64,000 nt of DNA from the UHGV virus genome UHGV-1376660; one strand, given 5' to 3'. The DNA is from a virus. A model generated the notes under the pieces. It ran no database searches. It had not been told where the DNA came from and was given only the letters and a program-made list of their open reading frames with translations. Positions within the stretch are counted from its first letter, which is position 1. Each line of letters opens with the position of its first letter. Positions 34,467 to 38,067 of the stretch are shown one piece after another. Both the position numbers and the translations under genes were made by a program.

Positions 34467-35111
34467 TTAAAACGTCTCAGGGGGCTTCTGACGCGCTACG
34501 CTGATGTCGATTACCCCAGCTTTTGGGCGAGGGTCGACAAGATTCAACTCTTCAGCGCTGTGATACTCCGTATCGAACTCCCGATCGACATGGCGAATGT
34601 AGATGGCCGTGAGAAGGCTGTCGTCGTTCAGGAAGTGTCCGTAGGATTTGCGGATCACTTCGCCAACCTTCTCGATCTTCTCCCCACCCATGCAAAGATG
34701 GTTAAACCGGCTATGTTTCCGCAGCATCTCATCCACCGGGCCGGAGTAGACCTTATCGACTCTCCCGAACCGGATGATATTTCCAGTATCAGCCTCAACC
34801 AGACAAACGAGCTTGCCAGGTTCGACCCGGTCTCGCCATGTTACACCAGAGCGGAGTGTGTTGAAGTAGGGAGCGTCTAATCCGATGATCGGTTTACGAA
34901 ATGCCAGCAGTGGCACGTAACGTATGCAGCTGTTCAGGTGGAAGTGCGCACCGGCGTCGTGGAGTTTGAGCCGGGTTTCGTTAATCGGGCACTTCGACGC
35001 AATGCCACACAGGTCGCAGAGCAACTTCTGTTTGTTCAGGCTAGTGTTCGATTCAATAGTGTAGGAGCCATCTTCAAGACGGCGAACCCAGCGCGTGCGT
35101 TTGAGATCCAT
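34467..35111 (-). CDS. hypothetical protein (214 aa)
   Basis: Long ORF with no clear RBS. Confidence 0.45.
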   Translation of the reverse strand: MDLKRTRWVRRLEDGSYTIESNTSLNKQKLLCDLCGIASKCPINETRLKLHDAGAHFHLNSCIRYVPLLAFRKPIIGLDAPYFNTLRSGVTWRDRVEPGKLVCLVEADTGNIIRFGRVDKVYSGPVDEMLRKHSRFNHLCMGGEKIEKVGEVIRKSYGHFLNDDSLLTAIYIRHVDREFDTEYHSAEELNLVDPRPKAGVIDISVARQKPPETF

Positions 35112-35197
35112 AATTCTTATTCAAATAGTTTTGTCCGGGGCAACGATAACTGACAAGGCGCACCGATGTTTGCAAATGCCTGTTTTACTTATACCCA

Positions 35198-35420
35198 TTA
35201 TTCACAGGACCGATCCAATAATTAGATCCCCAGAGAGATCCTACAGAAGATCAAAAGAGATCCCCGATCGTCTCAAGCCGTTGCGGTTACTGGCCTGAGA
35301 GGGGGTTACTATCCACTATGGGGAGGAAAGTAACCTCTGTAGAGAGCATAATAACCGCTATGAAGAGCAAAACAACCTCTCTGGAGAGTGGTCGGTATCC
35401 ACTGTAGTGAGTAGGAGACA
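35198..35420. promoter_or_regulatory. origin-like module copy 1: DnaA box TTATTCACA, a cluster of 6 GATC sites (35212-35275), then 5 iterons
   Basis: Architecture matches P1 oriR (DnaA box, Dam sites, 5 incC iterons). Iteron consensus is approximately CTATCCACTGTAGAGAGTAG. Confidence 0.6.
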
Positions 35421-35572
35421 TTGTCTTAACTGGATAACTCAGTGCCTGTATTTCTACGTCAGGTGGCTGATATTCATAGAGATGTTGGAAGGTTTGCGTT
35501 CAGGCGTGTTTGTTTCGACCACACATTATCCCCAGAAGGGGAGTAATGGCTGGTTTTGCAATTACCTGATTT

Positions 35573-35830
35573 TTATACACAGGCCCGATCCAGTAATTCA
35601 GATCCCAAAGAGAACCAAAGAGACCCACAAAGACCCAAAAAGATCCCCGCACCCCGCAAACCGTTGTGCCACATGGCTTTAGAGGTGATCACTATCCACT
35701 ATAGAGAGAAGATCAGCCACTATGAAGAGCAAACCAACCACTGTAGAGAGTAGAAAAACCACTATAGGCGGTAGGATAACCGCTGTGATGAGTGCTACTA
35801 TCCACTGTAATCAGTAAAGGCCACCAAAGC
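35573..35830. promoter_or_regulatory. origin-like module copy 2: DnaA box TTATACACA, degenerate GATC cluster, 6 iterons abutting repA
   Basis: Tandem duplicate of copy 1. GATC sites are partly mutated to GAACC/GACCC. Confidence 0.6.
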
Positions 35831-35855
35831 CGTCGAATAAAAAGAGACATTTGGA

Positions 35856-36911
35856 ATGAGCGAAAACGGCAATAAAAACATAGCGATCGTTGAAGCATTC
35901 TCAGAAACAGACAAAAAGTCCGGCGAAGTTGTTACGTTGGTTCCTAACACCAACAACACAGTTCAGCCCGTTGCTCTGATGCGTCTTGGTCTCTTCGTTC
36001 CGACGCTGAAATCGACCTCCAGGGGCAGAAAGGGGCAAATGGTCTCTATGGACGCCTCTGCTGAACTCAAACAGCTGTCTCTGGCAAAAGCCGAAGGGTA
36101 TGAGGACATAAGGATCTCTGGCGTTCGTCTGGATATGGATAACGACTTCAAAACGTGGGTAGGCATCATCCACGCGTTCGCCAAGCACAAGGTTGTTGGC
36201 GACACTGTCACGTTACCGTTTGTCGAGTTCGTCAGGCTTTGTGGCATACCAACGGCCAGATCATCCGCGAAGTTACGTAAGCGCCTGGACAGTTCTCTAA
36301 CCCGTATCGCCACAAACACTATCTCATTCCGCACTAAAGGCTCTGAAGAGTATTACGTGACGCACCTTGTGCAGACAGCAAAGTACAGCACCAAGAATGA
36401 CACGGTCTCGCTGCAGGCTGATCCTAAGATTTTCGAACTCTACCAGTTCGACAAAAAGGTTCTTCTGCAACTCCGGGCAATCAACGAACTCTCCAGAAAA
36501 GAATCCGCGCAGGCGCTCTACACCTTCATCGAAAGTTTGCCACCTGACCCGGCACCAATCTCGTTGGCTCGCTTACGCGCCAGACTTAACTTAACCAGCC
36601 GCACCATTACCCAGAACGCGACAGTCAGGAAGGCGATGGAACAGCTGCGGGAGATCGGCTATCTCGATTACACCGAAGTGAAGCGCGGCAGCTCGGTCTA
36701 CTTCATCATCCACTATAGGCGGCCGAAGTTACGCCCGGCATTGCCACCAGTTAAAGCTGCGTCGGAAGAACCAGAAGACATCTTGCCTGGTGATGATCAG
36801 GAGGACATTATCGATGTTGTTCCTGAAGAAAAAGACGGTGAGATGGTCATGCTGAGCAAGGAAGAACTGGCGATTCTCGAAGAGCTGCGCAAGGCAAAGG
36901 CTCGCAAATAG
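35856..36911 (+). CDS. repA: plasmid replication initiator RepA (P1 / RepFIB type)
   Basis: [42 protein letters not shown] and IGYLDY blocks match P1 RepA from memory; iterons on both sides. Confidence 0.85.
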
Positions 36912-37515
36912 CCCAACCACTGTAGAGAGTAGAAAGGCTCACTATCCGCTGTAGTGGGCCTTTTGTTTATCTGAAATCAGCTATCCACTGTAGTGAGTAA
37001 CAACAACCGAAGAGTAACCACTGTAGGCAGTAGTGCTCAAATAACGAAATAAATGTTAGTGGTTACAAACATAGATGAAACAAGGGCTGCGAGGTTAGTG
37101 GTCACTGGGTGACTTGTTAAATCCACTCTCTATAGTGGTTATCGTTGCTCCCTTCGCTATTGGCTATCCACTGTGGAGAGCAGAACCGGTTGGCTGGATA
37201 TACTATCCACTGTGGAGAGTAGATATCCGCTGAAAACAGTGAAGGTTTACTCTCCATAGTGGATACCCGCTGGAGGGCGCATTCCATCACTCTCTATAGT
37301 GGTTGTTTGCTGCGAATAAACGCCTGTTTACTCTCTACAGTGGATAGCGACGCCGATAAACGCCACTTTACTCACTACAGTGGATACAGGATGTCACGAC
37401 AGGAGTTTACTCACTACAGTGGTTGGGTTGCATACCTGAATGGCGCTCTACTCACTACAGTGGTTATGAGCCGGATACGCACGCGGTGAGCTGGCTACTC
37501 ACCGCAGTGGTTAGT
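36912..37515. repeat. downstream iteron array (incA-like): about 14 copies of a roughly 19 bp unit in both orientations
   Basis: Units such as AACCACTGTAGAGAGTAG (forward) and TACTCACTACAGTGGATAC (reverse). Seven consecutive reverse units sit at about 41 bp spacing (37245-37510). Confidence 0.7.
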
Positions 37516-37519
37516 GTTA

Positions 37520-37732
37520 TCAGTGGATTTTCTTCAGCAAACCCCAGAGTGTCCCGGCCTTTGTCGTGAGCTTACCTGTTTCCGGATCGTACATGCGCCA
37601 TTCGCGACGCTGGTGGACAATAACACCGTCCTCACGTTCCAGACGCTCTAGCACGCCGGGTTGCTTAAACCCTTTGGCACGCCAGTAGCCGCTTGTTTTT
37701 TCGATTTCCAGACCTGCCAGTGTAACCGCCAT
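37520..37732 (-). CDS. hypothetical protein (70 aa)
   Basis: ATG at 37732 overlaps the upstream stop as ATGA. Confidence 0.4.
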   Translation of the reverse strand: MAVTLAGLEIEKTSGYWRAKGFKQPGVLERLEREDGVIVHQRREWRMYDPETGKLTTKAGTLWGLLKKIH

Positions 37733-38067
37733 CAACCAACCTCCTTGCAGTCATCGAAAAGGTAGCTGGCGTTCTTCGCGTGAACGCCGTAGACATCACC
37801 TGATTTGTTGTAAACGAACTTATCTTCACCAACGCCAGACAGTTTGCCGTTACGTTTGGTGAGATAGGGGGAAGACAGGACGCGATCATCGCGCACAACA
37901 TAAAACTGTTCGCCGCTGTCCACAACCATCGCGCCGTAGCTGGCTTTGACGACATTGCGGATCACGTCGTTTTTCACTTCGGCCACTGACATCTCACACT
38001 CATAGACGTGCGTGTCCGCGTAGACAGGGAGGGAGATCAGCGCCAGAGCCAGGGCTGTTTTCTTCAT
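37732..38067 (-). CDS. secreted/periplasmic protein (111 aa) with a signal peptide
   Basis: MKKTALALALISLPVYA signal sequence; AAGGAG RBS. Confidence 0.55.
   Translation of the reverse strand: MKKTALALALISLPVYADTHVYECEMSVAEVKNDVIRNVVKASYGAMVVDSGEQFYVVRDDRVLSSPYLTKRNGKLSGVGEDKFVYNKSGDVYGVHAKNASYLFDDCKEVG

Follow-up and report, generated by a model that had tools for sequence, protein, structure and literature searches.

The 64,000-nucleotide window analysed here is the stretch of the UHGV virus genome UHGV-1376660 that carries, at 35189–37513, a replicon with two consecutive copies of an origin module upstream of its initiator gene, repA, and an array of iterons downstream of it. Homology identifies this as a RepFIB/P1-family iteron replicon, the plasmid-maintenance replicon of a phage-plasmid of the SSU5/pHCM2/pMT1 type. 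The two upstream modules, termed distal (unit 1) and proximal (unit 2) according to their position relative to repA, and the initiator gene itself comprise the following features.

35189–35206, plus strand: tandem DnaA boxes of the distal unit, TTATACCCA (35189) followed by TTATTCACA (35198), found by sequence scan and kept in relatives.
35207–35275: six GATC (Dam) sites of the distal unit, at 35212, 35225, 35237, 35249, 35259 and 35266, a candidate region for unwinding and SeqA sequestration.
35310–35413, plus strand: five direct iterons of the distal unit, at 35310, 35331, 35352, 35373 and 35396, spaced 21, 21, 21 and 23 bp.
35429–35437, minus strand: reverse DnaA-like box ACTGGATAA (complement TTATCCAGT) at the right end of the distal unit.
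35438–35525: spacer between the units, poorly conserved (36–63% identity to Citrobacter and Cyrano).
35526–35581, plus strand: DnaA-like box TTATCCCCA (35526) and DnaA box TTATACACA (35573) of the proximal unit, found by sequence scan and alignment of relatives.
35582–35652: GATC-like region of the proximal unit, with GATC at 35587, 35601 and 35642 and decayed sites reading GAACC at 35612 and GACCC at 35622 and 35632.
35693–35816, plus strand: six direct iterons of the proximal unit, at 35693, 35714, 35735, 35756, 35777 and 35799, spaced 21, 21, 21, 21 and 22 bp.
35772–35777 and 35793–35801, plus strand: candidate repA -10 elements within the proximal iterons, TAGGAT and the extended -10 TGcTACTAT.
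35856–36911, plus strand: repA, coding for a 351-amino-acid iteron-binding initiator of the Rep_3 / RepFIB-P1 family, recognised as an open reading frame and by Pfam and homology.

Two consecutive origin copies upstream of repA had been described in a first reading of this sequence (the original prediction), and both are present; they align over ~260 bp with 77% mean column identity. The distal unit has the complete layout of the P1 oriR (annotated in record K02380), with outer DnaA boxes, about five GATC heptamers and five iterons spaced by two helical turns, all within 35189–35413. It matches oriR element by element and can be aligned to it through the DnaA/GATC stretch: its tandem boxes correspond by homology to the tandem DnaA site annotated in P1 (K02380 729–746), its GATC cluster aligns with the GATC heptamer region, and its iterons are, as in P1, ~21 bp apart. 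The DnaA box originally given for this unit, at 35198, is present and fits the DnaA consensus TTATNCACA, but it is the second member of a tandem pair like that of P1. The six intact GATC sites claimed for this copy were all found, and runs of three close GATC sites occur nowhere else in the 64 kb (four overlapping matches against 0.45 expected). Within the upstream region, stability is lowest in the 40-mer that begins at 35184, over the distal DnaA boxes and the first of the GATC sites. The distal iterons retain 83–87% identity to the divergent Cyrano and Citrobacter sequences. The reverse DnaA-like box that closes the unit is an addition to the original prediction; its core, TGGATAACT, does not vary among the six aligned relatives, and IncFIB(K) has a perfect reverse DnaA box in the same position (L009 3230).

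The proximal unit follows the oriR-type layout in part, with one box, three GATC sites and six iterons. Relative to unit 1, the first box of the tandem DnaA pair is deleted; the box that remains at 35573 also fits TTATNCACA and reads exactly TTATCCACA in phage Cyrano and a related E. coli plasmid. Several GATC sites of this copy had been reported as decayed to GAACC or GACCC, and three such sites do stand where unit 1 has GATC. The same decayed sites occur in five of the six aligned clade members, the most divergent of which, Citrobacter, differs there. Because they are shared in this way, the decayed sites are evidently old and fixed, with no sign of recent erosion. Tandem Repeats Finder detects a 10-bp periodic array, CCCAAAAAGA, in four copies at 35604–35643, exactly at the decayed sites; these A-rich repeats are in phase with the helix and could bend DNA. 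The Citrobacter array is shorter by 9 bp. The proximal iterons are kept in all lineages, and they hold the sole candidate -10 elements upstream of repA. The annotated P1 repA promoter occupies the same relative place, between the last iterons, and has TAGGAT as its -10; the GAGTGCTAC.TATCCAC stretch that holds the candidates here is invariant or nearly so across relatives. By position and conservation, the repA promoter is thus inferred to lie inside the last proximal iterons. Small open reading frames over the units (for example 35095–35298 and 35556–35753) were rejected as genes, as their lengths differ or they are broken in Cyrano and Citrobacter, and those in the 35438–35525 spacer are not conserved.

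RepA places the replicon among those with Rep_3 initiators. Both winged-helix domains, WH1 and WH2, are recognisable: Pfam Rep3_N matches with an E of 4.3e-11 (43.8 bits, cut-off 22.4), and Rep3_C with an E of 3.9e-4 at 21.0 bits, just below its curated cut-off of 21.1. RepA shares 46.5% identity with P1 RepA over residues 40–307 (E 3e-71), 46.5–47.5% with the P1 and P7 RepA proteins together (E around 1e-71), and 54–64% over at least 82% of its length with records annotated RepFIB or typed IncFIB. The P1/RepFIB family originally assigned is borne out by this similarity to characterised members of both kinds, although the initiator stands nearer to classical RepFIB (60–64%) than to P1 RepA. 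No match to RepA was found among PDB sequences or in NCBIfam. Beside the gene lie multiple direct repeats of 17–22 bp, 25 iterons in total (5 + 6 + 14), all within 35310–37513. Matches to the iteron consensus with at most three mismatches number 20 in the 64 kb, all at 35311–37512, where shuffled sequences lead one to expect 0.42. The iteron core had been likened to a DnaA box; literally it agrees in seven of nine bases, but a TATCCAC start is found in only 10 of the 25 iterons. Binding of DnaA to the iterons was rejected as unsupported, given this low count and the almost complete lack of TATCCAC in the iterons of a Pantoea relative.

At the nucleotide level, region 35100–37550 is 95.7% identical to Salmonella phage SSU5 over 100% of its length and 97.9% identical to a Salmonella plasmid. 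It is matched in 338 plasmid records from Escherichia, Enterobacter, Yersinia (pMT1), Salmonella, Citrobacter and others, mostly non-mobilisable plasmids of 100–120 kb. The flanking gene order is also that of SSU5: an SbcD-like exonuclease, a GNAT acetyltransferase, a 214-amino-acid open reading frame, repA and a Cra-like gene. The near-identical replicon and the conserved flanks together indicate an SSU5/pHCM2/pMT1-type phage-plasmid. The Yersinia pestis plasmid pMT1, a set of ~106.7-kb Salmonella plasmids (probably pHCM2) and SSU5 carry the same replicon at 95–98% identity over the whole 2.45 kb; the 5 + 6 upstream iterons and the decayed GATC sites recur in them, and only the number of downstream iterons differs. 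MOB-suite types this kind of replicon as plain IncFIB.

Comparisons with relatives provide evidence that the duplication is real and widespread. First, a 761-bp query over both units finds them whole (at least 80% coverage) in at least 332 of the 338 plasmids, and both are also whole in phages SSU5 and Cyrano; the shorter matches among those listed are cut by the end of the record, and no single-unit variant was found among the 338 related plasmid records. A single unit in all relatives would have meant an artefact; two copies are present wherever the whole region is recorded, and the layout comparison originally proposed, with P1 and SSU5-like elements, gives the shared P1 order and the same two units in the SSU5-like relatives. 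Second, both units are present throughout an alignment of six members reaching down to 69% identity, and against Cyrano and Citrobacter both are more conserved than the spacer between them. Third, a RepA-based scan with one genome per species yielded 80 loci (62–98% RepA identity), the upstream regions of which were searched with an nhmmer profile of the DnaA-box/GATC module. Two modules are found in 39 loci. In these the proximal one has 1–5 GATC sites, usually 3–4, and the distal one 5–6, and across the clade the distal module has 5–7 in virtually every lineage; among the 39, the distal count is the higher in 37, equal in one (L053) and lower in one (L063). Where a clade locus has enough sequence upstream, five or more distal GATC sites are kept, the exception being L063 with three.

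Eleven further loci have the distal module only, the proximal one being undetected, and at least nine of these clearly keep two separate upstream iteron arrays; the losses of the proximal module fall on at least five branches of the RepA tree. The distal module is detected in every locus of the clade, and two upstream iteron arrays are present in nearly all of its ~50 loci, which span a dozen genera or more. The pattern recurs in Cronobacter and Pantoea plasmids that were retrieved separately. Another 25 loci, of the Pantoea LPP-1 type, have a single module beside the initiator gene, as do P1, classical IncFIB and IncFIB(K), and all of these fall outside the one clade of the RepA tree that unites the two-array replicons. 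The age of the duplication was judged by shared structural changes and by this tree, because iterons co-evolve with RepA and identities between paralogous and orthologous units consequently give no timing. By these measures, the origin duplication is an ancient, clade-wide ancestral feature and not a peculiarity of this element. Two loci from Photorhabdus asymbiotica (L065 and L066) lie inside the two-array clade; their one DnaA/GATC module is placed at an intermediate distance (-343 to -239), and essentially no iterons can be recognised in them by a matrix built from those of the window. Their iteron specificity has probably diverged.

Downstream of repA, the replicon continues with a second group of features.

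36914–37221: first part of the iteron array, with plus-strand iterons at 36914, 36943, 36982, 37015, 37165 and 37204 and a minus-strand iteron at 37124.
36932–36964, plus strand: terminator-like hairpin of repA, the stem of which contains the degenerate iteron at 36943.
37058–37068 and 37096–37106: two half-iteron remnants, GTTAGTGGT, in a 90-bp gap of the array, kept in all four aligned relatives.
37248–37513, minus strand: second part of the array, with seven iterons at 37248, 37288, 37329, 37369, 37408, 37449 and 37496.

This array has the hallmarks of an incA-type locus in that it lies downstream of repA, outside the origin, and holds iterons in both orientations. About 14 downstream iterons had been counted originally, and 14 are found, six on the plus and eight on the minus strand. 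As in P1 incA, a forward block precedes a reverse block, with three forward and six reverse iterons in P1 and 6 + 8 here. The last seven, described as spaced by about 41 bp in the manner of P1 incA, do have gaps of 40, 41, 40, 39, 41 and 47 bp, but the P1 spacing is mostly 31 bp with one gap of 41. Nor is the array unusually long, as had been claimed: relatives carry 9–16 downstream iterons (median 12), and it exceeds P1 alone, which has nine. There are nine in pMT1 of Y. pestis strain D182038, 12 in phage Cyrano, 13 in an Enterobacter ludwigii plasmid and 14 both here and in SSU5. Among close relatives that are otherwise 95–98% identical, the arrays differ by whole iteron-plus-spacer units of ~40 bp; relative to the window, one 40-bp unit is missing from the E. 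ludwigii plasmid, ~200 bp from pMT1 of D182038 and ~120 bp from Cyrano. These unit-wise differences in length indicate that the array grows and shrinks by unit-length recombination, and such expansion and contraction may tune copy control. The natural range of 9–16 iterons thereby offers a graded set in which the dependence of copy control on iteron dose could be tested. A contig of Y. pestis NCTC5923 (L019) has 14 downstream iterons, in contrast to the nine of pMT1 in D182038. At the left end of the array, RepA binding and termination at the 36932–36964 hairpin could interfere with each other. An additional iteron-like sequence, CATCCACTATAGGCGGCC, lies inside the repA coding region at 36707–36724 (residues FIIHYRRP) and has a counterpart in the Citrobacter relative (L004 4076); it may be a working RepA site within the gene or reflect mere coding constraint.

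Set beside P1, the replicon keeps the order of elements and departs from it in their number. In K02380, tandem DnaA boxes, Dam sites and five iterons (incC) containing the repA promoter are followed by repA and incA. Here there are two tandem origin modules ~375 bp apart in place of one, and 5 + 6 + 14 iterons (25) in place of 5 + 9 (14). The iteron sequences are unrelated to those of P1, and RepA has an extra 39 N-terminal and ~44 C-terminal residues. The single P1 origin lies directly upstream of repA and its iterons double as operator; here the complete, distal module is ~440 bp upstream of repA with the second module in between. The par operon follows incA in P1, whereas small reverse-strand genes come after the array here. 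Classical RepFIB (F/P307/pColV) and IncFIB(K) provide the closest well-known initiators, at 54–64% identity over nearly the full length. Their DnaA box and GATC module are recognisably homologous to those of the window at the DNA level, and they too have iterons on both sides of the initiator gene, but they possess a single origin module, shorter downstream arrays and a different iteron specificity; the iteron matrix of the window, at a score of at least 14, has no match in IncFIB(K) and two marginal ones in classical IncFIB. Replicons in which more than one origin-like site depends on a common initiator and its iterons are also known, such as R6K (alpha, beta and gamma) and F (oriV and oriS). 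The extra origins of R6K are not tandem copies of a full DnaA/GATC/iteron module, and no homology with the present replicon is claimed.

These features are those of an iteron-controlled, DnaA-assisted theta replicon, and binding, opening, sequestration, autorepression and handcuffing steps from P1/RepFIB biology may be mapped onto the observed anatomy, homologies and patterns of conservation and loss. The mapping moderately favours a division of roles after the ancient duplication, in which the distal unit would be the main Dam- and DnaA-dependent origin and the proximal unit the repA operator with extra iterons. RepA monomers on the distal iterons (unit 35189–35437) would, together with DnaA, open the GATC-rich stretch, and Dam methylation and SeqA on hemimethylated GATC sites would limit refiring of this origin. 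The proximal copy, 35526–35816, would act as an autoregulatory operator with the repA promoter in its last iterons and as an additional RepA-binding array; its Dam cluster appears partly disabled, and a residual or alternative origin function is possible. The 14 downstream iterons are predicted to act like P1 incA, titrating RepA and handcuffing the origin iterons to hold copy number near one. This assignment draws on the comparative pattern, with the distal module retained throughout the clade and the proximal one repeatedly lost, and on the anatomy. The complete oriR set and the least stable 40-mer both lie in the distal copy, making it the best candidate for the site of opening and gating, and the only plausible repA promoter elements lie in the proximal copy, which points to an operator. 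Copy number is low in P1 and has also been measured as low for pMT1, at 1.2–1.8 per chromosome (PMC13321490); with 25 iterons against the 14 of P1, the system looks like a stringent low-copy controller.

Several observations weigh against so simple a division. The difference in stability that singles out the least stable 40-mer amounts to only about two standard deviations, a strict sigma-70 consensus scan finds no plus-strand promoter upstream of repA, and the origin activity of either unit is a prediction from sequence. The proximal DnaA/GATC-like stretch is better conserved than its unit 1 counterpart against both divergent lineages compared: it is 94% identical to Cyrano, where the distal stretch is 78%, and its GATC-like part is 94% identical to Cyrano and 76% to Citrobacter. 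Such conservation suggests a sequence-specific function beyond that of a plain operator. Some Pantoea and Erwinia relatives keep 4–5 GATC sites in the proximal module, so both copies may fire there. Taken together, the conservation, the 10-bp repeat and these retained sites suggest that the proximal stretch is not merely decaying; it might be a second, less methylation-dependent origin or have a structural role such as bending. With regard to the comparative evidence, L063 has the opposite pattern of decay, the RepA tree is a neighbour-joining tree without bootstrap, and the locus counts are phylogenetically non-independent, though consistent in direction.

A wider version of the divided-roles reading is offered more tentatively, at somewhat less than even confidence. 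According to this version, the two-module replicons form a clade with split functions, comprising those of pMT1, the ~106.7-kb Salmonella plasmids, the SSU5-type phage-plasmids and plasmids of Cronobacter, Pantoea, Erwinia, Rahnella and Xenorhabdus. Their distal unit would be a fully Dam-gated origin, and their proximal unit would be Dam-disabled yet constrained, as an operator and/or a methylation-insensitive back-up origin.

Alternatively, both units may fire as origins, whether redundantly or each in particular conditions; strong Dam/SeqA gating of the distal unit and weak gating of the proximal one could, for instance, suit hosts or states that differ in methylation or DnaA status. DnaA boxes, GATC sites and phased iterons in both units, conservation of both above that of the spacer, the strong conservation of the proximal GATC-like stretch within the clade, the 4–5 proximal GATC sites of several Pantoea and Erwinia relatives and the occurrence of the replicon in many genera are all in keeping with two working origins. 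The 11 loci on at least five branches in which the proximal module is undetected tell another story, as their plasmids persist and the module must be dispensable for replication there. In the proximal unit of the window, moreover, one of the two tandem DnaA boxes is gone, as are half of the GATC sites. Two active origins are considered rather unlikely for this replicon.

The reverse assignment, in which the proximal unit is the real origin as in P1 and the distal unit an upstream control element, an incA-like array with a SeqA/DnaA sink, is less probable again and is given little credence. It would agree with P1, classical RepFIB and IncFIB(K), in which the sole origin immediately precedes the initiator gene, with the fit of the proximal box TTATACACA to TTATNCACA and its exact TTATCCACA form in Cyrano and the E. 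coli plasmid, and with the very good conservation of the proximal region within the clade. Titration, however, requires iterons only, yet it is the distal unit that keeps DnaA boxes and 5–7 GATC sites and the proximal unit that repeatedly loses them; the complete P1 oriR layout, right-end box included, is also distal. An assembly artefact, or a recent, private and neutral tandem duplication, is refuted by the divergence of the copies, which disagree at roughly one in four aligned positions and in indels, by their joint presence in at least 332 of 338 independent plasmid records, two phage genomes and distant genera, and by the clade-wide scan.

Replicons of this type have been familiar since pMT1 and pHCM2 were sequenced, and their family is textbook material. 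In a literature search, no accessible account of an origin duplication in pMT1, pHCM2, SSU5 or RepFIB came up, nor any of the clade-wide distribution of two modules or the asymmetric loss of Dam sites, with the original 1998 pMT1 sequence papers outside the search and a prior description therefore possible. The result is an architectural variant and no new mechanism. In the P1 paradigm, the same five iterons are both origin and operator, and initiation is hard to separate from autoregulation. If the divided-roles reading is true, origin firing and initiator autoregulation would be physically uncoupled, unlike in P1, and the diverged duplicate modules would provide a ready-made natural separation of the two. 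The replicon maintains medically relevant elements, among them Y. pestis pMT1, the ~106.7-kb Salmonella plasmids and SSU5-like phage-plasmids, and phage-plasmids are described in the literature as often carrying resistance genes. The cis elements that set copy number and incompatibility matter for plasmid typing, curing strategies and vector design.

With respect to the surroundings of the replicon, GC (guanine-cytosine) skew over the window has no inflection at the replicon, so skew neither locates nor orients the origin, and an Rfam scan of 34900–37800, inter-unit spacer included, finds no RNA family even at E values up to 1. The 214-amino-acid open reading frame (34467–35111, minus strand) is divergent from the distal origin and is the constant left neighbour of the replicon, even where the initiator is of another type. 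A GATC at 35105 directly adjoins its start codon, and the promoter of this gene must overlap with the origin at the left edge of the latter. Searches of Pfam and NCBIfam give no match for it, and one record names it an ASCH RNA-binding domain protein.

The E. coli plasmid p504211_100 (L008), also an SSU5-like phage-plasmid, has an initiator of another kind (annotated RepB family, 404 amino acids). It shares the 214-amino-acid neighbour gene and the DnaA-box/GATC module (L008 3001–3172 against 35100–35270 of the window, 75% identity), and none of the iterons of the window are present in it. This arrangement suggests replicon swapping with a breakpoint just past the conserved GATC module. The annotated start of the L008 initiator probably overruns the iterons of that replicon.

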